Shown here: in pieces, positions 3,732 through 50,416 of the stretch | Position numbering within the stretch: the first letter of the stretch is position 1 | How the letters are laid out: each line of letters begins with the position of its first letter | Origin: a bacterium | Lineage (GTDB): Bacteria > Patescibacteriota > Patescibacteriia > Patescibacteriales > UBA12465 | NCBI GenBank assembly: GCA_035402825.1 | Contig: DAONDZ010000001.1 | Span: 172,839-236,838 of the forward strand | DNA length: 64,000 nucleotides | Direction: 5' to 3' | Translations under genes and position numbers: made by a program | The notes under the pieces: generated by a model | What the model saw: the letters and a program-made list of their open reading frames with translations, nothing else | Database searches by the model: none | Told to the model about the DNA's origin: nothing

Positions 3732-4413
3732 AGTACTGCAGAAAATAATTGCCGAAAGAAGTTCCTATTCTCGCCGCCAAGCCGAGGTTTTTATCCGTCA
3801 GGGGAAAGTGATGGTGAATGGGAAAATTGCTAAGCTGGGTGATCGGGCTAATTTAGATACGAGAATGACAGTCGGTGGCCGGGAGTTGAAATTGCCGGCG
3901 CAGAAAATATATATCATGCTCAACAAACCCAAAGGATATACTTGTACCAATAGGACATTTAAGGCTGAGAAAAACATTTTTGAATTAGTGCGAATAAACG
4001 AAAAACTTTTTGCTGTTGGCCGTCTGGACAAGGATAGTCATGGCTTGATATTATTAACCAATGATGGAGAATTGACCCAGAAACTAGCCCATCCCCGCTA
4101 TGGCAGCCAAAAAGAGTATGAGGTTATCATCAGCGAAGACGCCGATCACTCCCGGAAATTAATGGAAGGCATGAATATTGGTGAAGATGACGGTTTTGTG
4201 AAGGCCGACAAAGCAAAATATTTGGGTAATCGCAAATATTCCATCATTCTTTCCCAGGGCAAGAAAAGACAAATCAGAAGAATGTTTGGAGCGATTGGGG
4301 TGGACGTATTAGACCTAAAGCGCGTTAAGCTGTCTAATTTAGAGCTGGGCACCCTGCCAGAGGGGAAGTGGCGGGAGCTAACCCCGGAGGAAGTGAAGAG
4401 ATTAAAAAAATAG
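3724..4413 (+). CDS. rRNA pseudouridine synthase (RsuA/RluB family) with an S4 domain
   Basis: S4-like N-terminus (RRQAEVFIRQGKVMVNGK), catalytic motif GRLDKDSHGLILLTNDG, and KKRQIRRMF. Confidence 0.8.
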   Translation: MNEVLQKIIAERSSYSRRQAEVFIRQGKVMVNGKIAKLGDRANLDTRMTVGGRELKLPAQKIYIMLNKPKGYTCTNRTFKAEKNIFELVRINEKLFAVGRLDKDSHGLILLTNDGELTQKLAHPRYGSQKEYEVIISEDADHSRKLMEGMNIGEDDGFVKADKAKYLGNRKYSIILSQGKKRQIRRMFGAIGVDVLDLKRVKLSNLELGTLPEGKWRELTPEEVKRLKK

Positions 4414-36887: not shown

Positions 36888-36992
36888 GTGCTCTTCCGAG
36901 AGAGGATATATAAACAATTAAATTATTAATGAAACAAAGCAACGGACAATATTTTCGGCATTGATAAATTAATATTACTTTTTATAAAAAAA
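36888..36992 (+). repeat. Junction J1 (attL-like): degenerate core, element left arm and promoter
   Basis: gtgctct-tccgagagaggatatataaacaa...cattgataaattaatattactttttataa aligns with 38310-38416, including an identical 29-mer. Contains TTGATA, 16 nt spacer, TATAAA (36961-36988). Confidence 0.6.
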
Positions 36993-37118
36993 AGTCAATT
37001 AATTTAAAATTATAGTTTTATAAAATAATTATCTCTATTTTTAGAGATTTTCTCAGTTCTCGCTATTACTGAGTGGCATGTGTTATAATATGAATACTAA
37101 GTATTAATTTTGTTTTAT

Positions 37119-38216
37119 ATGAAATCTAAAAAAGCCTTTACTCTCATTGAACTCCTCGTTGTGATTGCCATCATTGGCATCCTCGCTACTATTTCCGTTA
37201 TTGCTTTAAACAATGCTCGCGCTAAATCGCGTGATGCTAAAAGAATTGGAGATATCAAGCAAGTCTCAACTGCTTTAGAGCTTTTCTTTAATGATAAAAA
37301 TCGTTATCCGACTGTGGAAGAATGGAATACCGGACAGATTTTTTCTACTACTACCGGCGCTACCTCGACTTATATGCAAATCATTCCAGCCGCCCCAACG
37401 CCTAACGATGGCTCTTGCACAACTGGACAAAACACTATTAGCTATACTCCAACACTCGATGGAGCTTCCTATACTGTCTCTTTTTGTTTAGGCAATACTA
37501 CTGGGGCCCTTGATTCCGGACCGAAGTGCTTGACTCCTGGAGGCGTTTTGGATGTAGATTGTTCAATCACTATTCCTGCCGCCCCTAGCTTTGCTTGTGG
37601 CACTGATAGTGTGACTTATGAAGGTGAAGTCTATCCTACTGTTTATATTGATAATACTGGTGGCCACAATTTGAGCCTTCCTGGCCAATGTTGGTTCGCC
37701 AAAAACCTCAATGTGGGAACTATGGTTGCTGGTGCTGCCAATCAAGCTGATAACGGTATTATAGAAAAGTATTGTTATAATGATAATACTTCCAATGAAT
37801 GTGCTACTGATGGCGGTTTGTATCAATGGGATGAAGCTATGCAATATTCCGTGGCTGAATCGGCTCAGGGCATTTGCCCTGACGGGTGGCATTTGCCGAC
37901 TGACGCAGAACAAAATACCTTGGATCAAAATTTAAATGACACCACTTGTAATGCTAATAGAACTGGAGATTGGGGTTGTGCTAACGCCGGTACTAAATTA
38001 CAGGACGGTGGGACTTCTGGACTTAATGTTCTCCGAGCCGGCACTCGTTATATCAATGCGGCGTTCTACGCTCGAGGGGTGTACACGATTTTTTGGTCAT
38101 CGTCTATTAGCGGTTCGGCCGCCTGGGGTCGGAATGTGACCACTAACAACGCTGCCGTTTACCGCAATTCTTATGACCGAACCACCGGCTATTCTGTGCG
38201 TTGTCTTCAGGACTAA
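37119..38216 (+). CDS. Type IV pilin-like protein with a C-terminal FISUMP-type domain (paralogue 1, not matched by the TR)
   Basis: KAFTLIELLVVIAIIGILA prepilin-type N-terminus. GGLYQWDEAMQY...GICPDGWHLPTDAEQNTL...YSVRCLQD. ATG 37119 preferred. Extended -10 TGtTATAAT at 37081-37089. Confidence 0.8.
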   Translation: MKSKKAFTLIELLVVIAIIGILATISVIALNNARAKSRDAKRIGDIKQVSTALELFFNDKNRYPTVEEWNTGQIFSTTTGATSTYMQIIPAAPTPNDGSCTTGQNTISYTPTLDGASYTVSFCLGNTTGALDSGPKCLTPGGVLDVDCSITIPAAPSFACGTDSVTYEGEVYPTVYIDNTGGHNLSLPGQCWFAKNLNVGTMVAGAANQADNGIIEKYCYNDNTSNECATDGGLYQWDEAMQYSVAESAQGICPDGWHLPTDAEQNTLDQNLNDTTCNANRTGDWGCANAGTKLQDGGTSGLNVLRAGTRYINAAFYARGVYTIFWSSSISGSAAWGRNVTTNNAAVYRNSYDRTTGYSVRCLQD

Positions 38217-38248
38217 TTCGACTATTTTGATCTTTTGGAAGGCCGAAT

Positions 38249-38267
38249 CACTAGAATATTTCTAGTG
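38249..38267 (+). terminator. Hairpin downstream of paralogue 1
   Basis: cactagaa / tat / ttctagtg. No strong T run, so terminator function is uncertain. Confidence 0.35.
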
Positions 38268-38273
38268 GTATAA

Positions 38274-38399
38274 ACAAAAAGAGAACTGGCACAGGCCAGT
38301 TCTCAGAAAGTACTCCTCCGAGAAGAAATATCGAAACATTTAAACGAAATTGTTGAGGAAATTAAACTTTGGTCGATGTTTTTGACATTGATAAATTAA
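38274..38399 (+). pseudogene. 3'-terminal remnant of a serine recombinase gene spanning junction J2
   Basis: Reads TKRELAQASSQKVLLREEISKHLNEIVEEIKLWSMFLTLIN*, compared with NKRELATASSPKVPLREKISKRFNEIIGEIKRWARFLDECPF* at the end of the 43659-45236 recombinase. Nothing upstream of it is recombinase-like. Confidence 0.65.
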
Positions 38400-38415
38400 T
38401 ATTACTTTTTATAAC
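38388..38415 (+). promoter_or_regulatory. Candidate promoter in the element left arm
   Basis: TTGATA, 16 nt spacer, TATAAC. Identical 29-mer at 36958-36986. A perfect TTGACA also sits at 38382-38387. Confidence 0.4.
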
Positions 38416-38489
38416 TATAAAAGTCAACAAAGTTAAAATCCTCTTTTGTTTATTCAAAAACCTAATTAAAATTTACTCCCACTATTGTC

Positions 38490-38499
38490 GGGGGGGGGG
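38490..38499 (+). repeat. G10 homopolymer tract in the promoter region of the DGR target gene
   Basis: tcGGGGGGGGGGcagaaaaTGtTATAAT. The tract ends 10 nt upstream of the -10 hexamer. Confidence 0.9.
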
Positions 38500-38506
38500 C
38501 AGAAAA

Positions 38507-38515
38507 TGTTATAAT
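38507..38515 (+). promoter_or_regulatory. Extended -10 element (TGtTATAAT) upstream of the DGR target gene
   Basis: The same TGtTATAAT is found upstream of paralogue 1 (37081-37089). Confidence 0.5.
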
Positions 38516-38551
38516 AAAACTAGATTAAGCTAATTATTAATTTATTTTAAT

Positions 38552-39697
38552 ATGTTAAAGAGAAAAGCCTTCACTCTAGTAGAACTATTGGTAGTAATAG
38601 CCATCATTGGCCTATTAGCTACTCTATCAGTCATTGCTCTAAATAGTGCTAGAGCTAAGTCTAGAGATGCTAAGAGAGTAGCTGATGTTAAACAGATCTC
38701 TACGGCTCTAGAGCTATTCTTCAATGATGCTGGCAGATACCCCACTGATCTAGAATGGGCTAGTGGCTCTTTAGAGTATAATGGTCAGACCTATCTCTCT
38801 ATTATCCCTTCTGCCCCTACCCCTGCTGATGGTAGCTGTGACTCTACTACCAACTCTTTTTCTTATACCCAGGATAATAGTGGTGAATCATATACTCTCA
38901 CCTTCTGTACTGGTGGAGTAGTGGGTTCTCTTACTGCTGGTGAGCTTTGTGCTACCCCGGGTGGGATGGCGGGGTGTGGGGGAGGCGGGGGCTGTATTCT
39001 TGATTGTACTAACAAAAACTGTGGTGATGATGGCTGCGGTGGTAGCTGTGGTGTTTGTACCGGCAATGATGTCTGTACTAATGGTACCTGTACTACTCCT
39101 CCTTTTGCTTGCGGAGACTCTGTCTCCTATGGCGGTGAATCATATCCCACGGTTCTGATCGGAGCCCAGTGTTGGTTTGCTAAGAATTTAAATGTTGGGG
39201 ATATGGTGACCGGGGTCACCCCTCAGTCAAACAACGCTATTGTAGAAAAATATTGTTATAATGATGACGCTTCTCATGAATGCGCCACCTACGGTGGCCT
39301 ATACCAATGGGATGAAGCTATGCAATATTCTGTCACCGAAGGGGCCCAAGGTATTTGTCCTGACGGTTGGCATATCCCAACTGACGCTGAACAAAATACT
39401 TTAGACCAAGGTTTAAATGATACTACTTGTAATGCTAATAGAATTTTAGCTTGGGACTGTGCCAATGCCGGTACCAAATTACAGGCTGGAGGTACTTCTC
39501 ATTTTGAAGGCCTCTTGGCCGGCTACCGCAATACCAATGGGTCGTTCAACGATCAAGGGACGTACGCGCTCTTCTGGTCATCTACTATTAGTGGACCGGA
39601 TGCCTGGGATCGGCTCTTGTACACTGGCTACGCGACCGTTCGCCGCGGTCATGATGACCGAGCCTACGGCTTTTCCGTGCGTTGCCTTCAGGACTAA
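38552..39697 (+). CDS. DGR variable (target) protein: type IV pilin-like N-terminus, Cys/Gly-rich linker, FISUMP-type C-terminal domain
   Basis: KAFTLVELLVVIAIIGLLA; CGGGGGCILDCTNKNCGDDGCGGSCGVCTGNDVCTNGTCT; GGLYQWDEAMQY...GFSVRCLQD. The last 178 nt form the VR. Confidence 0.9.
   Translation: MLKRKAFTLVELLVVIAIIGLLATLSVIALNSARAKSRDAKRVADVKQISTALELFFNDAGRYPTDLEWASGSLEYNGQTYLSIIPSAPTPADGSCDSTTNSFSYTQDNSGESYTLTFCTGGVVGSLTAGELCATPGGMAGCGGGGGCILDCTNKNCGDDGCGGSCGVCTGNDVCTNGTCTTPPFACGDSVSYGGESYPTVLIGAQCWFAKNLNVGDMVTGVTPQSNNAIVEKYCYNDDASHECATYGGLYQWDEAMQYSVTEGAQGICPDGWHIPTDAEQNTLDQGLNDTTCNANRILAWDCANAGTKLQAGGTSHFEGLLAGYRNTNGSFNDQGTYALFWSSTISGPDAWDRLLYTGYATVRRGHDDRAYGFSVRCLQD
39518..39695 (+). other. 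DGR variable region (VR)
   Basis: 178 nt aligned without gaps to TR 40277-40454. There are 16 mismatches, each opposite a TR adenine. Confidence 0.9.
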
Positions 39698-39700
39698 TTC

Positions 39701-39727
39701 GACTATTTTGACTATTTTGACTATTTT
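39701..39727 (+). repeat. Three tandem copies of gactatttt just after the target stop codon
   Basis: gactatttt gactatttt gactatttt. Paralogue 1 has one copy in the same place (taattcgactattttga is shared). Confidence 0.85.
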
Positions 39728-39752
39728 TCCGCCTCGTGTAAGCGAGGCGGAA
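39727..39752 (+). promoter_or_regulatory. GC-rich hairpin downstream of VR (candidate DGR target-recognition cruciform and/or terminator)
   Basis: ttccgcctcg / tgtaag / cgaggcggaa: a 10-bp perfect stem. With a t-g closing pair the loop becomes GTAA (GNRA-type). Confidence 0.55.
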
Positions 39753-39768
39753 TTAATTAAATTTTTCT

Positions 39769-40113
39769 ATGGCTACCTATGATAATTTGCCGGTGTATAA
39801 AGCCAGTTATGATTTACTGCTAGAAATATTCACTTTCAGTAAGAACATGGACAAAGAATATAAATATACCATTGGAGAAGATTTGAAAAAAGAAACCACG
39901 GCCATGATTACCAATATCTATCGCGCCAACTGCAACCAAAATAAAAAAGAGTTAATTCAAAGTGGTCGGGAAAATTTGGAAGTCATCAGATTATATTTAC
40001 GCCTAATTAAAGATTTGAAACAAATAAATTTGTTAAAATTTGTAAAGATTAATGAAATTATTGAGTCAATTTCCAAGCAATTAAATTTTTGGCAAAGTGC
40101 CATGAAATCATAA
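39769..40113 (+). CDS. avd: DGR accessory variability determinant (four-helix-bundle, 23S rRNA IVS protein family)
   Basis: 114 aa helical protein (PVYKASYDLLLEIFTFSKNMDKEYKYTIGEDLKKETTAMITNIYRAN...) sitting between target and TR as in canonical DGRs. Confidence 0.75.
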   Translation: MATYDNLPVYKASYDLLLEIFTFSKNMDKEYKYTIGEDLKKETTAMITNIYRANCNQNKKELIQSGRENLEVIRLYLRLIKDLKQINLLKFVKINEIIESISKQLNFWQSAMKS

Positions 40114-40276
40114 TGGGCCAGAGTCGTCATCGGTTACGGCCAGGGCGAGCGTGCCTCACTAGTCCAATAGTCCACTAAATTTTCTAAATTTAGTAATTGA
40201 CGGGGCAACCTGTCATTCTGCTGATTTTTTAGATAATATCAAATCAGCCGAAGAGGTTAGCGATTATTATAAAAGA

Positions 40277-40454
40277 GCCGGCAACCGCAATACCAATGGG
40301 TCGTTCAACAATCAAGGGACGAACGCGAACTTCTGGTCATCTACTATTAGTGGACCGGATGCCTGGAATCGGAACTTGAACACTGGCAACGCGACCGTTA
40401 ACCGCAATCATAATGACCGAGCCAACGGCTTTTCCGTGCGTTGCCTTCAGGACT
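40277..40454 (+). other. DGR template region (TR)
   Basis: Encodes AGNRNTNGSFNNQGTNANFWSSTISGPDAWNRNLNTGNATVNRNHNDRANGFSVRCLQD in the VR frame, with 15 AAY codons. Flanked by hairpins at 40178-40198, 40220-40248 and 40461-40487. Confidence 0.9.
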
Positions 40455-40508
40455 GGTCAAAAGGAGCCATATATCAATGGCTTCTTTTATTTTACTAAAA
40501 TATTTTTT

Positions 40509-41684
40509 ATGTCCGACAAACTTCTGGTTGACCTTTTTCAAGCCTATTACGACGCCCGACGCTATAAAAGAAATACAATGAGCGCTCTTAACTTTGAGAT
40601 TAATTTGGAGCAAAATATATTTGAATTGTATCGGGAGATAAAAAATAATACTTATCAAATTAGTCCCAGCCTAGCTTTTATTATCTTTGACCCGGTGCAG
40701 AGAGAAATTATCGCCTCGCCCTTTCGGGATCGAGTCGTGCATCACCTGGTTTTTAATTATATCAACCCCATTCTTGAAAATCTCTTTATTTCTGACAGTT
40801 ATAGCTGTCGCCAAGGCAAGGGTATTAGCTACGGAGTTAAGCGAGTCGCTCATTTTGTCCGCTCCAGTTCGCAAAATTATAGAGTTGATAATTATATTCT
40901 CAAATTGGATATTTCCGGCTATTTTATGAGTATTAACCAATCTGTTTTATATGATAAGGTAGAAAATTATTTATTAAGGCATAATGTTGATTACCCCTTT
41001 GACCTAAAATTAATTTCAGCCCTGCTAAAGAGAATTGTTTTTCACGATTATATTAAAGATTGCGTTATAAGAGGTGGAAAGACCAACTGGAAAAAATTAC
41101 CCCGCAACAAGAGTCTATTTTTCACGCCCCCGGGTTTTGGTTTGCCCATTGGCAATTTAACCTCGCAATTATTTAGTAATGTTTATTTAAATGATTTTGA
41201 CCATTATATTAAGCGGACTTTGAAATTTAAGTATTATGGTCGTTATGTCGATGACTTAATCATTATTGACGGTAGTAAAGAAAGGCTCCAAATAGCTATG
41301 GCCAAAATTGCGGAATATTTATCAACGAATCTAAACTTAAAAATTCACCCCAGAAAAATCTATTTACAGCCCTATGCCAAAGGCGTTAATTTTTTAGGCG
41401 GGATTATTAAACCCCACAGAATTTATGTCCGCCACCGGACTAAAACCAGTTTTTATCGCTCAGCGACTAAGGCTAATAATATTCTGAAGAATGTAGATGT
41501 AGAAAGGAAAGCCCTCAGGAAAATTTTATCCAGTTTTAATTCCTATTTAGGGGTGTTTGGGCAATATCAGACCTATAATTTACGCCGTAAAATATTGGAC
41601 AACAAGCTATCCTCGGATTTTTGGCGTTATTTTAGACTTGGGAAAGGTGAGTCAAGATATAGAAAAATTGTTTTAAGAAAATAA
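40509..41684 (+). CDS. DGR reverse transcriptase
   Basis: LPIGNLTSQLFSNVYLNDFD (the IGxxxSQ motif typical of DGR RTs) and YGRYVDDLIII (YxDD). ATG 40509 chosen because the longer track ORF (40413) starts inside the TR. Confidence 0.9.
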   Translation: MSDKLLVDLFQAYYDARRYKRNTMSALNFEINLEQNIFELYREIKNNTYQISPSLAFIIFDPVQREIIASPFRDRVVHHLVFNYINPILENLFISDSYSCRQGKGISYGVKRVAHFVRSSSQNYRVDNYILKLDISGYFMSINQSVLYDKVENYLLRHNVDYPFDLKLISALLKRIVFHDYIKDCVIRGGKTNWKKLPRNKSLFFTPPGFGLPIGNLTSQLFSNVYLNDFDHYIKRTLKFKYYGRYVDDLIIIDGSKERLQIAMAKIAEYLSTNLNLKIHPRKIYLQPYAKGVNFLGGIIKPHRIYVRHRTKTSFYRSATKANNILKNVDVERKALRKILSSFNSYLGVFGQYQTYNLRRKILDNKLSSDFWRYFRLGKGESRYRKIVLRK

Positions 41685-41690
41685 TTATAC

Positions 41691-42306
41691 TTATCCCCAG
41701 CAAAATGCTAGCAAATTTAAATATTTAAAAAAGTTTTTCAAATTCCCAATAAATTCACCCCTTAACCTTACCGCTAATTTATGCTATGATACATTCAGAC
41801 TTAATCAATAAAAATATATAACCTCGGGACCCATTGTTGAATAGATGTCGCTCGCATGAAACGCAAAATAAAAAAATAAAACTCATAAAATAATATCCCC
41901 TGTAAATTAGCAAAGTCTTTCTTTGCCAATTGAAACTAATTAACCAGCATTTGTCCGTGCTCGGTTTTTTTGTTTTGGCAAAGACTATTAAATTTCGTCG
42001 TCGCCTGTTTAGATAGCGAAACAGGTTAGTTGATTTCTTTGGTGTAAACATAAGCGTGTAGTTTGGTTTTAGCCTATTAGTGGTACTTGCCCGTCGCTAA
42101 TGGCTAGTTCTGTTATTAATTTCTCATTTTTGACCGTCCCCCAAGCATTGTTTTTTAGTTTTTTTTCGGCGAGGCTTGTCCGCTCGCCGAAAAAATAAAA
42201 ACAAGCTGGGGGCGGTAAATGAGATTTTAGACAAAAGTAGTGTCCGTTTGTCGTGTGCCTCTATTAGACTTGACTATAGGCACACTTAACGCCGTTATTA
42301 AACTCT
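41691..42306 (+). other. Conserved structured non-coding region upstream of Rep (copy 1): promoter, terminator-like hairpin, nested stem-loops, candidate replication origin
   Basis: Aligns with 47040-47682. TTAACC, 17 nt, TATGAT at 41762-41790. Hairpin plus T run at 41944-41976. Nested structure 42122-42224 (tctcattt...aaatgaga enclosing ttttttcggcgag/ctcgccgaaaaaa). Hairpin gtgtgcct...aggcacac at 42253-42285. Confidence 0.55.
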
Positions 42307-43098
42307 ATGGAAATTAAACCACGAGTTTATCGGCAGAAGCTGGTAGAGTCGGGTGATTATGTGGAAATATATGATTATGAGAATTTCATTAAAATTAATC
42401 AAAAGAGAAAACGAAGAAGAAATACAACCAAGAGACCTAAATTTATCGGCCCACCTACTTATTTAGATGTGCTTTGTCGAGAAACAAAAAATGGTTTTTC
42501 TCTAAGGCGAACTCGGTCAAATATTGTTAGATTGGTAAATTCTAACCCCGATTTAAAAGTATTTATTACTCTCACCTTTGATAGCCATAAATTCGGGGAT
42601 AAGCCGTTTACTGATTTTAAGGAATGTAATTTGATATTTTCTAATTTCATTAAACGACTAAAAAGGAAATATCCCGATTTAAAATATTTGGCCGTGCCTG
42701 AATTTCAGAGCGACTATTATCACCGCACCAATATTAGAAAAGAATTTGGCGGTAATATTCACTATCATTTATTGTCTAATTTGCCGTTTATTGAAAATAC
42801 TCAATTAGAAAAAATCTGGGGCTACGGATTTATTAAAATCAATAATATCCGACAGGTGTCTGCTGTCGGTCCGTATGTGGCTAAATATGTCGGCAAAGAA
42901 TTGTTTGACGGTCGTTTAAATGGGAAAAAGAAATTGTTTTATTCTCGCACTCTTAATCGCTCTAAAATCATTATTACCTACTCAAAAATAAAAGAATATT
43001 TAAACAACTTAAAATCACCCCTCAAGCTTTTGCACGAGACAACTTACAAGTCCGAGTATCTCAGCAGAGCTCGCTATCGGCTCTATAAACAAGGATAG
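42307..43098 (+). CDS. HUH-superfamily rolling-circle replication initiator (two-tyrosine type), copy 1
   Basis: Motif 1 VFITLTF, motif 2 NIHYHLLS (HUH), motif 3 GPYVAKYVGKE (Y-x3-Y). Confidence 0.7.
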   Translation: MEIKPRVYRQKLVESGDYVEIYDYENFIKINQKRKRRRNTTKRPKFIGPPTYLDVLCRETKNGFSLRRTRSNIVRLVNSNPDLKVFITLTFDSHKFGDKPFTDFKECNLIFSNFIKRLKRKYPDLKYLAVPEFQSDYYHRTNIRKEFGGNIHYHLLSNLPFIENTQLEKIWGYGFIKINNIRQVSAVGPYVAKYVGKELFDGRLNGKKKLFYSRTLNRSKIIITYSKIKEYLNNLKSPLKLLHETTYKSEYLSRARYRLYKQG

Positions 43099-43138
43099 CA
43101 AAACTGATTTTGTTAATCATACGTTCATCTAAAATATA

Positions 43139-43288
43139 ATGACTATTGAGGCTCTTAAAAAATCAATAGTAGGTCGTGGGCGACAGTATTCCGATGACGA
43201 ATTGGAGACAATTAGACGCGACTTATACCAACTGGCTCATCTGCTAGTCGAATATTATTTTAATCAGCAAAAAATATTAATAAAATAA
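43139..43288 (+). CDS. Small helical protein (49 aa), YSDDELE-RRDLY family
   Basis: MTIEALKKSIVGRGRQYSDDELETIRRDLYQLAHLLVEYYFNQQKILIK. Conserved in E_C (48518-48673). Confidence 0.5.
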   Translation: MTIEALKKSIVGRGRQYSDDELETIRRDLYQLAHLLVEYYFNQQKILIK

Positions 43289-43298
43289 ATAAAAAATT

Positions 43299-43454
43299 AT
43301 GATGAGTATAAGTAAATTAAGAAAATTGTTAAGCGAAAAGGCAAATGAATACAGCGAAGAAGAACTAGAAGAAATGCGGCGAGATATTTATACATTTGCT
43401 AATCTAGCCTTTGATATTTATAAAGAGAATCCCAGGATATTAGATAAATATTAA
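43299..43454 (+). CDS. Small helical protein (51 aa), paralogue of the preceding ORF
   Basis: MMSISKLRKLLSEKANEYSEEELEEMRRDIYTFANLAFDIYKENPRILDKY shares the YS-EELE-x-RRD-Y-x-A-L core. Confidence 0.45.
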   Translation: MMSISKLRKLLSEKANEYSEEELEEMRRDIYTFANLAFDIYKENPRILDKY

Positions 43455-43461
43455 AGCGATA

Positions 43462-43658
43462 TTGTAAAAATAAAAATATATGTTATTATCCTTAATGGAC
43501 ATAACTTATAATAGCGGAAAGCTACTATTTTCTTACATCATAATGACGGCAGATAAGTCGTTTTGATATAAAGGGAGCAGTGGCTGTTTCAACAAGGCTT
43601 TCCGCTAAGTTGTGTCCAACAGTTCACTGCTCTCTTTTTATTATTAACTTTTAACCCT
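43462..43658 (+). promoter_or_regulatory. Promoter plus about 165-nt structured leader of the recombinase gene (copy 1)
   Basis: TTGTAA, 16 nt, TGtTATTAT (43462-43489). P1 ggacataactta/taagttgtgtcc; P2 agcggaaagc/gctttccgct; long-range gagcagtg (43575-82)/cactgctc (43625-32) followed by tctcttttta. Confidence 0.5.
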
Positions 43659-45236
43659 ATGCAAAAAGGAATAATCTATTACCGAGTTTCAACCGAAGAT
43701 CAGGCTCAAACTGGTGTTAGTTTGGAGCAACAGAAAAACGCTTGTCTTGATTACGCTCAAAAGAATGATATTGAAATACTAAAATTATTTCACGATGACG
43801 GAGTGTCTGCTAAAACTACCAAAAGAGCAGGACTTCAAGAACTATTGGCGTATTGTAAAAAGAATCATAAAGAGATTGATTGTTTGATAGTCTATAAAAT
43901 TGACCGGCTATCTCGAAATGTAAAAGACTACGCCACGCTATTAATGGCTTTGGGCGAATTTAACATTAAATTCATATCTACCACTGAAACCGTTAACGAA
44001 ACTTCTAGCGGAAAATTAATTGGCACAATTATGGCCTCGTTCGCTCAATTTGATAATGATGTTAGGAGCGAAAGAGTGTCGGTCTGTATGCTCGAAAAAG
44101 CCAAGCAGGGAATCTGGTGCTTCAAGGCCCCATTCGGTTATCTAAACAGCCGTGATGAGCAAAATAGAGCCATTATAACCATTGATAAGAGTAGGGCCGA
44201 GATTATTAAAATGGCCTTTGAAAAGTTTGCTACAGGATTATATAAAATGGAGGAAATACGGATAATGATGATTAAGGCCGGATTTAAAACCTGGCGAGAT
44301 AAAGAAATAAGCATCCAAAGTGTATTTAGAATTTTGATTGATAAGTTTTATATTGGAGTTATGACGATTAAAGGTCAAGAATATCAGGGGAGCCACGAGG
44401 TTTTTATTAATGAAAACACTTTTTATAAATGTCAAAAATTAATCCGCACTTCTAAACGAGGCGACAATATTGCTTTTAAACGCACTAATGAAATGTTCCC
44501 TCTCAGAAATTTTATTTTATGCCCCTCCTGTGGTCGTCCTTTTACTGCTTGCTTGTCCCGCAACTCCCGGGGTAATTATTACCCGTATTATAGATGTTAT
44601 AACAAAAACTGCCGAGGTTATAAATCAATATCTAAAGATAAATTGGAAAATAAGTTCAGCGATTATCTTAAAAGTATAGCGCCTGATCCTTATTTTGCCA
44701 AAGATTTAAGATTAATAGTTATTGAGGAATGGGAGAAAAAAATTAAAAACTATAAAGGCAGTTTGGTTGATGCCAAAAATCAGTTAGAAGTATTGGAATT
44801 AGAAAAGTCCAAATTGATAGAAATGAAGAAAAAGGACCTGCTTGACGACAATGATTTTAAAGAAGAAATGTCTAAAGTGAAGATTAAAATTGCTGAGAAA
44901 CAGTCTACCCCAGCTGAGAATATTCCTAATAATTTTGACATTAAGAAACAATCCAAAAAAGTTTTTGATATCATTCCCGACCTTGATAAATTTTATAATA
45001 GTCTTGGTTATTATGACAAACTTAAATTTCAGAGTTTGATTTTTCCCGAAAAGGTCTATTTTGATTTTTCAGAAAGTCGAACAGCTAAAATGTCGCTAAT
45101 ATTACAGAATAAAAGAGAACTGGCGACTGCCAGTTCCCCGAAAGTACCCCTCCGAGAGAAGATATCTAAACGATTTAACGAAATTATTGGGGAAATTAAG
45201 CGGTGGGCGAGGTTTTTGGACGAATGCCCATTTTGA
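43659..45236 (+). CDS. Large serine recombinase (integrase), copy 1
   Basis: Resolvase-type catalytic domain (IYYRVSTEDQ...VYKIDRLSRN), recombinase domain, zinc ribbon (CPSCGRPFTAC...YYRCYNKNC), coiled coil. Confidence 0.85.
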   Translation: MQKGIIYYRVSTEDQAQTGVSLEQQKNACLDYAQKNDIEILKLFHDDGVSAKTTKRAGLQELLAYCKKNHKEIDCLIVYKIDRLSRNVKDYATLLMALGEFNIKFISTTETVNETSSGKLIGTIMASFAQFDNDVRSERVSVCMLEKAKQGIWCFKAPFGYLNSRDEQNRAIITIDKSRAEIIKMAFEKFATGLYKMEEIRIMMIKAGFKTWRDKEISIQSVFRILIDKFYIGVMTIKGQEYQGSHEVFINENTFYKCQKLIRTSKRGDNIAFKRTNEMFPLRNFILCPSCGRPFTACLSRNSRGNYYPYYRCYNKNCRGYKSISKDKLENKFSDYLKSIAPDPYFAKDLRLIVIEEWEKKIKNYKGSLVDAKNQLEVLELEKSKLIEMKKKDLLDDNDFKEEMSKVKIKIAEKQSTPAENIPNNFDIKKQSKKVFDIIPDLDKFYNSLGYYDKLKFQSLIFPEKVYFDFSESRTAKMSLILQNKRELATASSPKVPLREKISKRFNEIIGEIKRWARFLDECPF

Positions 45237-45240
45237 TAAT
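45111..45240 (+). repeat. Junction J3 (attP-like hybrid between units E_B and E_C)
   Basis: aaaagagaactggcgactgccagttccccgaaa-gtacccc-tccgagagaagatatctaaacga.... The left half matches 50311-50350 and the right half matches 38317-38399. Confidence 0.65.
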
Positions 45241-45250
45241 TTTTTGGTGC

Positions 45251-45279
45251 TTGACTTTTCCTCAGAAAAGTGGTATTAT
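45251..45279 (+). promoter_or_regulatory. Candidate cargo promoter of unit E_C
   Basis: TTGACT, 17 nt, TATTAT. Confidence 0.5.
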
Positions 45280-45366
45280 TATATATTCAACAAATTAGAC
45301 TTACTGTTTAATTTTAGCTATAATAAAGGAATAATACAAGAGTAAATTTATACTAAAATTAACAAT

Positions 45367-45552
45367 ATGTTAAAAAATCAAGTGAATTCCAACGAAAATA
45401 AAGTTAACCTGATAAATGATATATATAATCAGGCTTTAAACGACATTGAAAAAATTAAAAAGGAAAGGGATAAGAAAATTAAGAATGTTCTGAAAGAAAT
45501 AGATAAAAAGCACGTAGCCAAGGCTCTCAGGGATATAAAAAATTCAAAATAA
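45367..45552 (+). CDS. Hypothetical K/N-rich small protein (61 aa)
   Basis: ORF only, with coiled-coil-like composition. Confidence 0.35.
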   Translation: MLKNQVNSNENKVNLINDIYNQALNDIEKIKKERDKKIKNVLKEIDKKHVAKALRDIKNSK

Positions 45553-45583
45553 TTTTTAATATTAAAAAATAACAATCAATTAT

Positions 45584-46969
45584 ATGAATATGGAAAATCA
45601 AGTCAAGGAATCCCCATTAGAAAAAGCTAAACGGCTAAAAGCCGAAAAAGAAAGCAAAGATCAGGCCAAAATCGAGGCTGAATCTTCCGCTAAAGCTGAA
45701 AAATTGGGGGCTCTTAATAGCCAAAAACAAGGACTAGAAAATCAGCTCGATGAAATTAATTCTAAAATTGAAGCCTCGAGGGGCGAAGCTCATGAAACTA
45801 GGGACACCATGCAAGAGGCTGGCCTAAATAAAGACGAGGAATTTAAAGGTGAATATAATTCCACCATTTCTGAAGTGGCTGGAAATTTAAATGAATTGAG
45901 AAATGAAAGAAATAGAATTAAGGCCGAGTTAGAGCAAATTAATTCTAATATTGAAAATTTTGAAGTCAACGAAGCTATTTCGGAGGGCAAAGAAGCTACT
46001 CAGGAAGCGGTTGAAACTGTTAATCAGGAAAACGAGCAGGCTATAACCCAAGTAGAAAATTATCCCGGTGCTGAAGCTGGGGATATTAAGGCTTCTCAGG
46101 AAATAGTGTCCGAAATAAACCAGGAGGTTAATCAGGTTGTTAAAAATTCTGAGAATAATGTTAAAGAAGTATCCGGTGAAAAAAAAGAGGAAAAAAAGGA
46201 AAAAACATTTGATTTTGATGATATTGCCAAAGAAATCACGTCTGACGTCGCCCATCTTTTAAATGAAGAAGATAAAAGACTGAAGATAGTAAAAGAAAAT
46301 ATTTTAAAAATGCCTAAAGCGAGCAAGGGAGATTATGAAAAAATTTTCGCGGAGGAAGCTGTTAAATTTGAAAGACGCCTCTATACCGTTAACAATTTAT
46401 TAGCTAAGTTAGAATATCCGATTAATAGACTTGCATATCAAGGGAAGTATGACCAAGATCGTGATAAAAATTTGAAGAGGCAGGAAGAATTGGTTAATTA
46501 CATTAATAATATCGCCAACACTAGCCCGGCTAGCCAAAAAGAAACGGAAATATTCAATATTTTGAGAGAAAAAATTGCAAAGGCATCAGACAAGGAGACT
46601 GCGGGAGAAAAAAAAGAAAAAACATTCGAAGAGGTTAGACAGGAAGTGGCGGTAGAAGTCGGTAATCTTGTCAACGCAGAAAGAAATAAATTAAGCGACG
46701 CAGAACTAAGAGTGCGTAATTTTCAAGGAGGCAAGGAAGAATATGAAAAATTAAGACATGATATTTATGGCATTCAATGGGATGCTCGCTACCTCGTAGA
46801 TATTGATGAAAAATTGGAACCTTTAAAAATTATTGCTACACAATCTGGGAAGTTGAAAGAATTTGACAAGATGCATCAGGATCAAACTATTTCTGATTAT
46901 AAAAATTTCAATAAAGTAGCTGGAGAATTGATAGAAGATTTGGACAAAAAGATGTCAAAAACATCCTAG
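45584..46969 (+). CDS. Acidic coiled-coil protein (461 aa) with an internal duplication
   Basis: E/K/N/Q-rich N-terminal half. Two related modules each begin GEKKE(E)K..KTF(D/E) (nt about 46176 and 46604). Confidence 0.6.
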   Translation: MNMENQVKESPLEKAKRLKAEKESKDQAKIEAESSAKAEKLGALNSQKQGLENQLDEINSKIEASRGEAHETRDTMQEAGLNKDEEFKGEYNSTISEVAGNLNELRNERNRIKAELEQINSNIENFEVNEAISEGKEATQEAVETVNQENEQAITQVENYPGAEAGDIKASQEIVSEINQEVNQVVKNSENNVKEVSGEKKEEKKEKTFDFDDIAKEITSDVAHLLNEEDKRLKIVKENILKMPKASKGDYEKIFAEEAVKFERRLYTVNNLLAKLEYPINRLAYQGKYDQDRDKNLKRQEELVNYINNIANTSPASQKETEIFNILREKIAKASDKETAGEKKEKTFEEVRQEVAVEVGNLVNAERNKLSDAELRVRNFQGGKEEYEKLRHDIYGIQWDARYLVDIDEKLEPLKIIATQSGKLKEFDKMHQDQTISDYKNFNKVAGELIEDLDKKMSKTS

Positions 46970-46999
46970 ATAAATTTTACAGGATTATAAAAAAACTAC

Positions 47000-47030
47000 A
47001 AAAACGCTTTTAAAAGGGCGTTTTTGTGTT
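47000..47030 (+). terminator. Intrinsic terminator after the E_C cargo
   Basis: aaaaacgc / ttttaaaagg / gcgttttt followed by gtgttt. Confidence 0.5.
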
Positions 47031-47039
47031 TAATAATAT

Positions 47040-47682
47040 TTATCCACAGCGAAATATTAGCAAAACTAATTATTTTAAAAAATTGTTAAAATCACTCGCA
47101 AAACCAGCCCTTAACCCGCCCTCAAAAATATGGTATAATATAGTTGGACTAAAATAAAAATAAACTAACGCTGGGAACCACGGTTGAAACGGTATAAAGA
47201 TTATTGTATGCGCTTCTAAATAAAATAAAACTCAAAAAATATTATCCCTTGCAAAAATTAGCAAAGTCCAGTCTTTGCCAATTTAAACTTTAAACCAACA
47301 TTAGGCCGATGTTCGGTTTTTTTGTTTTGGTAAAGAGTAGTCGTCGGTTAGCAGTCTTGCCGTTGCTAGCCGACGACCATGCCTGTTTAGTCTCTCGTCT
47401 TTGGCTAAGCAGGTTGGTAATTCCTTTTAGGTGAACATAAGCGTATGATCTTGATTTAGCCCATTAGCGGCGTTTGCCCCGTTGCTAGTGGCTTGTTCTG
47501 TTCTTTTAATTTCTCATTATTGACGCCGCCGGACTGGATTTTTTCTTTTTTCGGCGAGTTGTCTGCGAGCCGAAAAAGAAAAACCAGCCGAGGCGGTAAA
47601 TGAGATTTTAGACAGAATAGTTCCCAGTGTGCCGTCGTCATATTAGACTTGACTATAGGCACACTTAACGCCGTGATAACTT
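47040..47682 (+). other. Conserved structured non-coding region upstream of Rep (copy 2)
   Basis: TTAACC, 17 nt, TATAAT (47111-47139, with TG). Hairpin plus T run at 47295-47329. Nested structure 47512-47608. Hairpin gtgtgcc...ggcacac at 47627-47664 with the same loop, tattagacttgactat. Confidence 0.55.
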
Positions 47683-48468
47683 ATGGAGATTAAACCACGA
47701 GTTTATCGGCAAAAGCTGATAGAGTCGGGTGATTATGTAGAAATATATGACTTTGAGAATTTCATTAAAATCAATCAAAAAAGAAAAAAGAGAAGAAATA
47801 AAAATAAAATTAAAAAAGATACTAATGACGAGGATAAAGAAAACGAGCAAAACTTAAAAAGCCATTTTTCATTGAGGCGGAGCCGATCAAATATTATTCG
47901 GTTGGTAAATTCCAACCCCGATTTAAAAGTATTTATCACCTTAACTTTTGATAGCCATAAATTTGGGGATAAGCCATTTACTGATTTTAAGGAATGTAAT
48001 TTGATATTTTCTAATTTCATTAAGCGGTTAAAACGGAAATACCCTGAATTAAAATATCTGGCCGTTCCCGAATTTCAAAGCGATTATTATCACCGCACTA
48101 ACATCAGAAAAGAATTTGGCGGTAATATTCACTATCATTTGCTGTCTAATTTGCCATTTATTCAGAGCGAAGAATTAGAGAAAATTTGGGGCTACGGATT
48201 CATTAAAATCAATAATATCCGACAGGTGTCTGCTGTCGGGCCGTATGTCGCCAAATATATCGGCAAAGAATTATTTGACGGTCGCTTAAATGGAAAGAAA
48301 AAATTGTTTTATTCGAGGACTCTTAATCGCTCTAAAATTGTTATTACTTATTCAAGAATAAAAGAATATCTCAACAACTTAAAATCACCTCTCCAGCTTT
48401 TGCACGAGACAACTTATCAGGCCGAATATGTCGGCAGAGTTCGCTATCGGCTCTATAAACAAAGGTAG
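47683..48468 (+). CDS. HUH rolling-circle replication initiator, copy 2
   Basis: Same three motifs as copy 1 (VFITLTF, NIHYHLLS, GPYVAKYIGKE). Differs mainly in the basic, low-complexity residues 30-65. Confidence 0.7.
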   Translation: MEIKPRVYRQKLIESGDYVEIYDFENFIKINQKRKKRRNKNKIKKDTNDEDKENEQNLKSHFSLRRSRSNIIRLVNSNPDLKVFITLTFDSHKFGDKPFTDFKECNLIFSNFIKRLKRKYPELKYLAVPEFQSDYYHRTNIRKEFGGNIHYHLLSNLPFIQSEELEKIWGYGFIKINNIRQVSAVGPYVAKYIGKELFDGRLNGKKKLFYSRTLNRSKIVITYSRIKEYLNNLKSPLQLLHETTYQAEYVGRVRYRLYKQR

Positions 48469-48517
48469 CCTAGTTAATAAACTAAAGTTGAATACCGACC
48501 CATTCAATATTCAACTC

Positions 48518-48673
48518 ATGATTAGTTTGACAGTCCTTAAAAAATTAATAGTAAGCCGTGGCCGACAGTATTCCGATGACGAATTGGAGACAATCAGGCG
48601 CGACTTATACCAACTGGCTCATCTTTCGTTCAAGTATTATCTTAATCAGCAAAAAAAGCTATTGTCAAAATAA
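48518..48673 (+). CDS. Small helical protein, YSDDELE-RRDLY family (E_C copy)
   Basis: MISLTVLKKLIVSRGRQYSDDELETIRRDLYQLAHLSFKYYLNQQKKLLSK. The track ORF 48428 starts inside Rep; ATG 48518 is preferred. Confidence 0.45.
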   Translation: MISLTVLKKLIVSRGRQYSDDELETIRRDLYQLAHLSFKYYLNQQKKLLSK

Positions 48674-48852
48674 AAATATATGCTAATATCCTTAATGGAC
48701 ACAATTAAATTAAGGCATAGCAACTATTCTCAAATCATAATGACGGCAGATGAGTCGTTTTGATATAAAGGGAGCAGTGGCTGTTTCAGTTATGCCTTGC
48801 ATAATTGTGTCCGACAGTTCACTGCTCTCTTTTTATTATTAACTTTAAATTT
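48662..48852 (+). promoter_or_regulatory. Promoter plus structured leader of the recombinase gene (copy 2)
   Basis: TTGTCA...TAATAT. P1 ggacacaatta/taattgtgtcc; P2 aaggcata/tatgcctt (a different sequence from copy 1, but still paired); same conserved loop and same cactgctc-tctcttttt end. Confidence 0.5.
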
Positions 48853-50382
48853 ATGGCCAAGCAAAAAGGTATTGTTTATTACCGAGTTTCTACCGAAGAT
48901 CAAGCTCAAACTGGCATTAGCTTAGAACAGCAGAAAAATGCCTGCCTTGATTATGCTCAAAAGAATGAAATTGAAATCTTGAAATTATTTCACGATGACG
49001 GCGTGTCCGCCAAAACTACCAAAAGGGCAGGCCTTCAAGAGTTGCTGGCGTATTGTAAAAAGAATTACAAAGAGATTGATTGTCTGATAGTTTATAAAAT
49101 TGACCGCTTGTCCCGAAATGTAAAAGACTACGCTACCTTGCTTATGGTTCTTGGCGAATTAAACATTAAATTCATTTCCACCACCGAAACAGTCAACGAT
49201 ACATCGAGCGGAAAGCTTATTGGCACGATTATGGCCTCATTTGCTCAATTTGATAATGATGTGCGAAGTGAAAGGGTGTCGGTTTGTATGCTGGAAAAGG
49301 CCAAGCAGGGGATTTGGTGCTTCAAAGCCCCATTTGGTTATCTAAACAGTCGAGATGGGCAAAATAGAGCCATTATAACCGTTGATAAGGAGCGTATGCC
49401 CATTATAAAAATGGCCTTTGAAAAGTTTGCCACGGGTTTATACAAAATGGAGGAAATTAGGCAGATGATGATTAAGGCCGGATTTAAAACATGGCGAGAT
49501 AAGGAAATAAGTATTCAAAGCGTATTCAGGATTTTAATTGATAAGTTCTATATTGGCGTTATGACGATTAAGGGCCAAGAATATCAAGGCAGTCATGAGA
49601 TATTTATTAATGAAAATACTTTTTATAAATGCCAAAAATTAATCCGTACTTCCAAGCGAGGCGACAATATTTCCTTTAAACGCACTAACGAATTATTCCC
49701 CTTGCGAAATTTTATTTTATGTCCCTCTTGCGGTCGGCCTTTCACCGCCTGCTTATCAAAAAATCACCAAGGCAAGCTCTACCCCTATTATATGTGCTAT
49801 AACAAACTCTGCCGAGGCTATAAGTCCATATCCAAAGATAAGCTGGAAAATCAGTTCAGCGATTATTTGAAAAATATATCGCCTGATCCTGATTTTGCTA
49901 AAGCTTATCAAGTAATTGTGGTCGAGGAATGGGAAAAAGGCTTGAAAAACTATCAAAGCAGTCTGGCTAATATAAAAAATGAATTAGATCAGTTGGAAAT
50001 AGAAAAATCTAAATTAATTGAAATGAAGAAAAAAGAGCTTTTAGATGACGAGGATTTTAAAGAGGAAATGTATAGAGTAAAAGTTAAAATAGCTGATAAA
50101 CAAAATTTTCCAGCCGACAATATCGCCGATGATTTTGATGTTAAAAAAGAATCTAAAAAAATTTTTACCATTATCCCTAATTTGGATAAATTCTATAATG
50201 GATTAAATTATTACGAAAAAATTAAACTACAAGGTTTGATTTTTCCTGAAAAGCCGGTGTTTGATTTTTCCGAAAATCGAACCCACAAAATCTCGCTAAT
50301 ATTACAAAACAAAAGAGAGCTGGCAAGTGCCAGTTCTCCGAAAGTACCCCCAAGAGGAATCGAACCTCTATGGTCAGCTTAG
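48853..50382 (+). CDS. Large serine recombinase (integrase), copy 2; its 3' end runs antisense into tRNA-Arg
   Basis: MAKQKGIVYYRVSTEDQ..., collinear with copy 1 up to ...SSPKVP, then PRGIEPLWSA* encoded opposite the tRNA. ATG 48853 preferred. Confidence 0.85.
   Translation: MAKQKGIVYYRVSTEDQAQTGISLEQQKNACLDYAQKNEIEILKLFHDDGVSAKTTKRAGLQELLAYCKKNYKEIDCLIVYKIDRLSRNVKDYATLLMVLGELNIKFISTTETVNDTSSGKLIGTIMASFAQFDNDVRSERVSVCMLEKAKQGIWCFKAPFGYLNSRDGQNRAIITVDKERMPIIKMAFEKFATGLYKMEEIRQMMIKAGFKTWRDKEISIQSVFRILIDKFYIGVMTIKGQEYQGSHEIFINENTFYKCQKLIRTSKRGDNISFKRTNELFPLRNFILCPSCGRPFTACLSKNHQGKLYPYYMCYNKLCRGYKSISKDKLENQFSDYLKNISPDPDFAKAYQVIVVEEWEKGLKNYQSSLANIKNELDQLEIEKSKLIEMKKKELLDDEDFKEEMYRVKVKIADKQNFPADNIADDFDVKKESKKIFTIIPNLDKFYNGLNYYEKIKLQGLIFPEKPVFDFSENRTHKISLILQNKRELASASSPKVPPRGIEPLWSA
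50311..50350 (+). repeat. Junction J4 (attR-like): element right arm plus core, fused to the tRNA-Arg acceptor stem
   Basis: aaaagagagctggcaagtgccagttctccgaaa-gtacccc, then caagaggaatcgaacc (the tRNA T arm, antisense). Confidence 0.65.
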
Positions 50383-50416
50383 AAGGCTGGTGTTCTATCC
50401 ATTGAACTATGGGGGC
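50345..50416 (-). tRNA. tRNA-Arg (anticodon TCT)
   Basis: Reverse complement gccccca-ta-gttc...ccagc-ctTCTaa-gctga...agagg-ttcgatt-cctct-tgggggt-a. Position 72 gives a G1-U72 pair, and this end coincides with the island junction. Confidence 0.85.

Follow-up and report, generated by a model that had tools for sequence, protein, structure and literature searches.

The 64,000-nt stretch analysed here (called the window; contig DAONDZ010000001.1) is a segment of a low-GC Patescibacteria chromosome, and its nearest homologues all lie in metagenome-assembled genomes (MAGs) of Patescibacteria. It contains two copies of a module, 5.2-5.4 kb apart and 83-87% identical, in which a hairpin-rich non-coding stretch of ~620 nt precedes the gene of a replication initiator (Rep). 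We propose, with a probability of roughly 0.72, that this stretch serves a small integrative rolling-circle element as its replication origin and control region, and that it is the counterpart of the intergenic region before gene II of filamentous phages. A preliminary description of the same DNA had read the hairpin block as a candidate rolling-circle origin region; the Rep family, the nick motif, the covariation and the context uphold this reading at the probability given, and the features it had listed (Rep, promoter, stem plus T run, nested hairpin and final hairpin) were all found in place.

Each copy comprises, in order, the ~620 nt of non-coding DNA, the open reading frame (ORF) of Rep (263 or 261 aa), one or two small ORFs, a second conserved non-coding block of ~200 nt and the gene of a 525-aa large serine recombinase. 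Four modules follow one another in constant order in the ~620-nt region across 47-48 distinct loci: an extended -10 promoter, a structured stretch of ~180 nt, a long hairpin of ~113 nt and a nick-site hairpin with the loop TTAACTTGACTAT. The first alignment comprised the two copies and 19 loci with Reps 56-95% identical (21 loci); a scan of metagenomes with the nick motif enlarged the set to 47-48 distinct sequences. More than 45 distinct loci of the element family were recovered from MAGs and metagenomes. The upstream regions of the two copies are 83% identical and differ by indels whose lengths are not multiples of three; no conserved small ORF was found in this region, the minus-strand ORFs differing between the copies.

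Rep is encoded on the plus strand at 42307-43098 (copy 1, 263 aa) and 47683-48468 (copy 2, 261 aa). It had been described as an HUH protein with a Y-x3-Y motif, and this call proved correct: both proteins matched the HUH family PF23343 (REP_ORF2-G2P) of Pfam with 58.2 and 57.1 bits, above the curated cut-off of 27.8 (E about 1e-15), and T88-L89-T90 (in FITLTF), H152-Y153-H154 and Y190/K193/Y194 (in YVAKY) are invariant in an alignment of 29 Rep sequences. In a pairwise alignment, Rep and phiX174 protein A were collinear through all three motifs (VFITLTF/VFDTLTL, HYH/HFH and AVGPYVAKYVGK/AVGFYVAKYVNK). A tblastn search of phage records with Rep returned the replication initiators of microviruses and of the rodent-faeces 'bajarodino' viruses, whose name suggests inovirus-like genomes. 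No relative was found among PDB sequences in a profile search with the Rep alignment. These data support the assignment of Rep as a phiX174 A-like two-tyrosine HUH nuclease, with its activity predicted from sequence.

The predicted plus-strand origin is a hairpin located ~30 nt before the Rep start codon. On the plus strand of copy 1 it spans 42253-42285 (GTGTGCC-loop-GGCACAC, loop TTAGACTTGACTAT), with the predicted nick between G42272 and A42273; in copy 2 it spans 47628-47664 (also plus strand), with ACTTGA at 47647-47652 and the predicted nick between 47651 and 47652. The preliminary description had noticed this hairpin and its invariant loop, and the loop motif recurs throughout the family as TTA(A/G)ACTTGAC(T/C)ATA: the loop TTA(A/G)ACTTGACTAT is followed by invariant GGCACACTTAACGCCGT and, about 10 nt further on, by the Rep ATG. 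Within the window ACTTGACTATAGGCACAC occurs exactly twice (at 42268 and 47647) when up to three mismatches are allowed, with 0 occurrences expected, and AACTTGACTATAGGCACACTTAACGCCGT is invariant in the 21 loci. The motif TTAACTTGA(Y)(Y)ATA..CACAC was found upstream of Rep in nearly all fetched relatives, including clostridial ones with 28-40% Rep identity, some of which have ACTTGATATTA at the nick motif. Single-sequence folds placed the nick motif in a loop in most subfamilies, and the stems surrounding it differ from subfamily to subfamily (GTGTGCCTAT/ATAGGCACAC, GCTTAT/ATAAGC, GGCCCGG/CCGGGCC, GACGGCTA/TAGCCGTC and ATCGGTTAG/CTAACCGAT), with compensatory changes such as ATAGGC/GCCTAT, ATAAGC/GCTTAT and ATACGC/GCGT-TAT. 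A likeness to the phiX174 nick site, suggested in the preliminary description, is real: in the phiX174 record the rep_origin is annotated at 4306 inside ccCAACTTG|ATATTAATAACACTATAGACCAC, and TTA(G/A)ACTTGACTATAGGCACAC of the element has AACTTGA and ACTATAG in common with it, minus the AT-rich spacer. A constant loop in changing stems, beside a two-tyrosine HUH nuclease, is what characterises a plus-strand origin, and homology predicts the cut at ACTTG|A.

Upstream of the nick site lies the long nested hairpin (copy 1, 42117-42229, about 44 bp; copy 2, 47495-47623; both plus strand), a candidate minus-strand origin and/or packaging signal that was delineated by folding and a covariance model. 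In copy 1 its layers are an outer stem TCTCATTT/AAATGAGA, a GC-rich stem, a T run paired with an A run and an inner stem CGGCGAG/CTCGCCG; across loci its length is 44-56 bp. Folded as single-stranded DNA, 42102-42299 reached -46.9 kcal/mol (z = -8.9, 200 shuffles). RNAalifold on a plain MAFFT alignment that included distant subfamilies yielded almost no structure, the arms being misaligned, and was replaced by single-sequence folds and covariance-model alignment. The covariance model R1, built from 21 sequences, had exactly two matches in the window, both on the plus strand, and further matches in 46 other loci. In the resulting alignment A9 (48 sequences), which was fitted to the model structure so that pairing is somewhat inflated, 84% of cells pair as compared to 45-50% when the partners are slid, and 30 of the 50 pairs changed on both sides (267 cells versus 49-63 in the slid controls); the observed values were reached by none of 500 shuffles. 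The double changes are evident in the raw sequences, too. The nested structure and the covariation of its arms, which had been proposed from the two copies, are thus confirmed, and covariation of the stems, measured against controls, holds in 47-48 homologues.

The long hairpin is 77-82% identical between c1-type elements (c1 being the element that carries copy 1) and the loci L054, L060 and L067, of which L054 and L067 encode a Zot-family ATPase. Because the Reps of the same loci are only 37-40% identical, the hairpin seems to be recognised by something other than Rep; candidates suggested by this pattern are the host priming machinery, which would make it a minus-strand origin, or virion assembly proteins, which would make it a packaging signal. 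A role as a terminator was ruled out, as on both strands the 5' arm contains the T run and the 3' arm the A run. Upstream of it, each locus has one to three variable hairpins, whose number and sequence differ between subfamilies; in copy 1 they are located at 42003-42026 and 42071-42105 (together 42003-42105, plus strand), and copy 2 has an extra one at 47340-47377. The hallmark CS-6 (TAGCGT/A) of the single-strand origin ssoA is not conserved: TAGCGA is present in one loop of copy 1 (42014-42019) and is absent from copy 2 and the other loci.

Judging from the signals at its two ends and the covariation between them, the 5' third of the region appears to be an RNA module that is transcribed, and not part of the origin DNA. 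It starts with the promoter P1 (copy 1, 41762-41790; copy 2, 47111-47139; both plus strand), which was already seen as TTAACC, a spacer of 17 nt and TATGAT (copy 1) or TATAAT (copy 2), and to which an extended -10 element (TG-n before the hexamer) can be added. P1 is found at the same relative position in the 21-locus alignment (consensus TTGATT...TGCTATAAT) and also in most of the 48 distinct loci. At its left edge the conserved non-coding block has a DnaA-box-like nonamer (TTATCCCCA / TTATCCACA; 41691-41699 and 47040-47048), ~80 nt upstream of the -10 element. Such a match (at most one mismatch, within 150 nt upstream of the -10) was present in 22 of 47 distinct loci versus 1 of 47 in a control stretch, and its position is fixed at -78 to -81 in nearly all members of the c1/c2 subfamily, with L021 having it at -56.

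The structured stretch, which extends from the predicted start site as far as a hairpin with a T run, covers 41797-41976 in copy 1 and 47146-47328 in copy 2 (plus strand). It starts near CATAGACTTAT, followed by a 5' AT-rich hairpin. The closing helix varies between subfamilies (GGGA/TCCC, GAAGA/TCTTC, GGAGAC/GTCTTC, AGAGA/TCTCT), and so does an inner hairpin (CTAGC-UACG-GCTAG versus CAGT-...-ACTG), and a hairpin GCAAAG-N5-7-CTTTGC is wholly invariant (GCAAAG-N5-CTTTGC at 41910-41926 in copy 1; 47261-47278 in copy 2). The terminator-like hairpin spans 41944-41976 in copy 1, with the stem at 41944-41964 and the T run from 41965, and 47295-47328 in copy 2; as had been noticed before, the two stems differ and still pair (CC-AGCA/TGCT-GG versus CC-AACAT/ATGTT-GG). 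In A11, a sequence-based alignment of 47 sequences, 90% of cells pair as compared to 36-44% with slid partners, both sides changed at 11 of 34 pairs, and G-U pairs are frequent. Searches with Rfam at the gathering threshold returned tRNAs only, with no family for either non-coding block, and permissive thresholds applied to 41650-43700 added sub-threshold generic hairpin matches only. Nothing convincing was found when the 5' RNA module was searched for complementarity with the rest of the element; the sole complementary pair common to both copies falls in the conserved Rep codons for LLSNLPF and is probably a coincidence.

The context of the region was provided by more distant relatives from MAGs and from 16 IMG/VR contigs, whose Reps are 35-52% identical and in which genes for a large protein, a protein of ~100 aa and a Zot-family ATPase precede the same origin block, leaving ~580 nt between Zot and Rep. 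With these genes the family looks like inovirus-type prophages, as far as gene content can tell, and because of these Zot-bearing, inovirus-like relatives the upstream region would correspond to the intergenic region of filamentous phages. Zot is absent from the window and from every locus of the close group, including c1 and c2, the elements carrying copies 1 and 2; a DGR (diversity-generating retroelement) or defence genes are carried in its place, and c1 and c2 are very probably reduced relatives of filamentous phages. Inoviruses with serine recombinases and with hosts in the Candidate Phyla Radiation have been reported (PMC6813254). The Zot-bearing relatives also have an extra conserved non-coding block of ~130 nt, which is flanked by the long hairpin and by a 97-aa ORF on the minus strand with a weak match to ArdC-N (L054, 4300-4460; L034, 5430-5590; L027, 5450-5610; L067, 1490-1650; L053, 5650-5780); it contains CTACCTTGATAGGCGA and a second CTTGATA-type motif and ends in GCCACAGATAGACAAT.

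In the proposed cycle, the serine recombinase would excise the element as a circle, and Rep would make its cut within the extruded loop, at ACTTG|A of the plus strand, remaining linked to this strand via one tyrosine. The host replisome would displace the plus strand and the second tyrosine would close the round, the long hairpin of ~113 nt folding on the displaced plus strand to act as minus-strand origin, packaging signal or both. From the 5' third, the sigma-70-type promoter would produce a structured, same-sense RNA of ~180 nt ending at the intrinsic terminator, which may hold Rep expression low as an attenuating leader or a regulatory RNA.

The closest parallel in layout is found in the Ff phages (M13/f1/fd). 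Their intergenic block contains a packaging hairpin, minus-strand origin hairpins and the plus-strand origin, and, as here, the morphogenesis genes are followed by ~500-600 nt of hairpin-rich non-coding DNA and then immediately by the initiator gene (in M13, gene I of the Zot family, gene IV, a gap of 505 nt and gene II). The Zot-bearing relatives share this gene order, and the Pfam family of Rep is named after G2P. The differences are that Rep has 263 aa with Y-x3-Y and is nearer to phiX174 A than to the 410-aa Ff protein, that the nick hairpin lies 30 nt from the ATG and is accompanied by an RNA module bounded by promoter and terminator, and that c1 and c2 have neither Zot nor recognisable coat genes and integrate by a large serine recombinase of their own. 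With phiX174 the element shares the catalytic motifs, including AVG-YVAKYV-K, and the origin core AACTTGA followed downstream by ACTATAG; however, the phiX174 origin lies within gene A and outside any hairpin loop, has an 11-nt AT-rich spacer between the two blocks, and belongs to a phage with an icosahedral capsid and no integrase. Plasmids of the pC194/pUB110 type, whose nick sequence is of the CTTGATA type, are likewise small replicons with a Rep of the same superfamily and a separate, strongly folded and orientation-specific element upstream that could prime lagging-strand synthesis, but CS-6 of ssoA is not conserved here and tRNA genes are the integration sites of the present element. Like inovirus satellites (RS1/TLC of Vibrio cholerae, plasmid pDolos), the present elements are small and have their own Rep and a predicted origin, with no virion genes recognised; they differ from these satellites in carrying a serine recombinase and cargo (a diversity-generating retroelement (DGR), Abi, restriction-modification genes, PD-Lambda-5) and in their Patescibacteria hosts.

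Several observations weigh against an origin at this site. Scans of IMG/VR with the nick motif and with the hairpin-base motif gave no match, and none of the fetched loci of the close group was a circular or terminally redundant contig, one further contig examined being another integrated copy. Neither attP junction reads nor a raised coverage were found for this group, no read data being available. In addition to the inflated pairing of A9, the folding energy of copy 1 at 41797-41978 is unremarkable (z = -0.72), so that only conservation and covariation speak for structure in its 5' part. Other points concern the molecule that folds. The long hairpin has 75 G-U pairs versus 42 A-C mismatches on the plus strand, a mild sign that this is the folding strand, but the asymmetry is modest, the sequences are mutually related, and RNA and single-stranded DNA folding predict the same strand and are hence inseparable here. 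The interval from the terminator to the Rep ATG yielded no promoter, and the hairpins are therefore probably transcribed within the Rep leader. Together with the conserved promoter and intrinsic terminator upstream and the tolerance of G-U pairs on the plus strand, this would suit a region that acts only as RNA, i.e. a long structured 5' untranslated region or a small RNA that controls the translation or stability of Rep, the origin being elsewhere or absent. We regard this as improbable: the loop motif equals the phiX174 nick sequence and is kept down to 28% Rep identity while the stems change, and a two-tyrosine HUH nuclease needs such a site, for which the element offers no other candidate.

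Two further explanations keep the nuclease and assign it another task. Rep could be the relaxase of an integrative mobilisable element that uses a foreign conjugation or DNA-export apparatus, the region being an origin of transfer. Rep-type HUH proteins act as relaxases in some streptococcal integrative mobilisable elements (PMC7563843), and the combination of serine recombinase and cargo without morphogenesis genes would fit; conjugation genes, however, were not seen in any locus examined, Rep belongs to the inovirus/plectrovirus G2P family, and relatives with the same origin architecture have Zot and are catalogued as viral, which makes a transfer origin quite unlikely. That Rep is a rolling-circle transposase of the IS91/Helitron type, with the hairpins as transposon end signals, is scarcely credible. 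IS91-type enzymes also have two tyrosines and the motif contains CTTG, which would resemble the IS91 target preference, but the element boundaries coincide with serine-recombinase attachment (att) sites, which are located at tRNA 3' ends and 1.7-5.6 kb leftward of the motif, each element has one motif and no second end, and the 263-aa protein matches a phage Rep family.

A more speculative extension of the origin reading is that c1, c2 and about 45 relatives, all of them Zot-less, live as phagemid-like satellites on the inoviruses of Patescibacteria. The long hairpin would then be a packaging signal shared with Zot-bearing helper prophages, DGRs and anti-phage systems would spread from one ultra-small bacterium to another as single-stranded DNA in filamentous virions, and the ~180-nt RNA would serve for immunity or copy control. 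The Zot-bearing locus L054 lies in the same MAG as L001 and L021, the long hairpin is shared, and in the case of pDolos a rolling-circle replicon was found to need little beyond a packaging signal for carriage by an inovirus (10.1101/2023.11.28.569023). Against obligate co-residence with a helper, the complete chromosome OW818634.1 yielded only the Zot-less L031. No c1-type sequence was present in IMG/VR. We consider the satellite proposal possible, though doubtful.

The borders of the elements were defined by the serine recombinases (copy 1, 43659-45236; copy 2, 48805-50382; both plus strand), which have Resolvase, Recombinase and zinc-ribbon domains. In nearly all loci the recombinase gene is directly followed by a minus-strand tRNA gene, and the identity of the tRNA varies. 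In the window this is tRNA-Arg(tct) (50344-50416, minus strand), into which the copy 2 recombinase gene runs; the similarity between the copies ends at 45150/50351, inside the 3' end of this tRNA gene. The copy 1 recombinase ORF continues for 28 codons beyond 45150, its last 86 nt (45151-45236) being encoded by the left end of c2, and the same 'tail' peptide is encoded at 38298-38384 and, in 17 other loci, 1.7-5.6 kb upstream of Rep. Alignment of the junctions revealed a P arm ...CTGGCnnnGCCAGTTCYCCGAAAGTACYCC, a P' arm TCCGAGAGRAGATATC... and a short shared core at the tRNA end. On the evidence of these junctions, c1 and c2 are elements integrated in tandem at tRNA-Arg and bounded by serine-recombinase att sites. 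Element c1 (38316-45150, plus strand) has the recombinase tail at its left end, followed by DGR cargo, origin region, Rep, two small ORFs and recombinase; c2 (45151-50351, plus strand) has the tail, ORFs of 61 and 461 aa, origin region, Rep, one small ORF and recombinase, with its right junction within the 3' end of tRNA-Arg(tct). The recombinase gene spans attP, so that integration swaps the C-terminus of the recombinase.

This arrangement is reflected in the tail-coding segments at 45151-45236, 38316-38384 and 36895-36940: the last ~28 recombinase codons come from an element left end, the copy 1 recombinase borrowing the tail of copy 2 and the copy 2 ORF entering the tRNA gene. To the left of c1 lies a relic, c0 (about 36895-38315), a decayed third element. 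What persists of it is a remnant of the tail, the terminal ~160 nt of a recombinase gene (38223-38315) and a second pilin-like gene with Fib_succ_major (37110-38216), whose diverged 3' end (38037-38214) resembles the variable repeat (VR) of a DGR. The relic suggests repeated integration at one tRNA gene, with older copies being pushed leftwards. The right arm of each element (50290-50345 on the minus strand, 45090-45145 and 38255-38310) contains CTGGCnnnGCCAG followed by a T run on the minus strand, which would give the tRNA a new terminator once integration has taken place; in L002, the original tRNA terminator can be seen in its displaced position at the left junction.

The ~200-nt block before the recombinase gene is a second structured leader (copy 1, 43453-43658; copy 2, 48653-48857; both plus strand). 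In copy 1 it contains an extended -10 promoter of its own (TTGTAA-16-TATTAT, with TG) and a long outer stem, and immediately upstream of the ATG lies a terminator-like hairpin with its T run. The two copies are 95% identical here, above the level of the flanking genes, and identity is 75-94% over about 200 nt in 47 loci. The outer stem covaries, and an alternative fold makes a terminator-like hairpin plus T run. The block looks like an attenuator or a riboswitch-like leader, with no match in Rfam. Between Rep and this leader are small ORFs, two paralogous ones of ~50 aa in copy 1 (43139-43288 and 43299-43454), both with (Y/E)S(D/E)EELE..(I/M)RRD(L/I)Y, and one in copy 2 (48428-48673). They match no family and could encode a copy-control or recombination-directionality factor; by inspection, the products after copy 1 Rep (49 and 51 aa) are charged with no obvious membrane helix, no coat-protein profile search having been made.

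The cargo of the close group comprises DGRs (c1 and L002), Fic and PIN-domain proteins, Abi_2, DNA methyltransferases, a restriction-modification methylase and PD-Lambda-5; the 461-aa cargo protein of c2 matches nothing in Pfam or PADLOC, its sequence being of low complexity and rich in E and K. The DGR of c1 lies on the plus strand, with the target gene at 38552-39697, the VR at 39518-39695, the template repeat (TR) at 40277-40454 and the reverse transcriptase at 40413-41684. TR and VR (178 nt) are 91% identical, each of the mismatches checked by inspection falling at a TR adenine, and the DGR appears to be active. Its target is a pilin-like protein with N_methyl and Fib_succ_major domains, an arrangement also found in L002. 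A retron or another system of reverse transcriptase and non-coding RNA that would involve the hairpins was considered for the reverse transcriptase beside copy 1 and rejected, as the enzyme belongs to the DGR.

An origin as such is expected before a rolling-circle initiator and is a known kind of replicon feature; the value of the finding lies in its context, and it is the element family, its cargo and the two uncatalogued structured non-coding blocks that are of moderate interest. They define a compact and widespread family of mobile elements in Patescibacteria that combines a phiX174-like Rep, an origin block in the style of filamentous phages, a recombinase gene spanning attP and swappable cargo. 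The Zot-less forms are invisible to inovirus detection based on pI/Zot (PMC6813254). The DGRs of this phylum have been classed as almost entirely cellular (10.1101/2020.04.01.020958), and a DGR inside a mobile element bears on how DGRs spread there. Precise predictions (the nick at ACTTG|A, the att core and the ~180-nt RNA) make the system directly testable, and its pieces could furnish parts of genetic tools for a phylum that has none of this kind.

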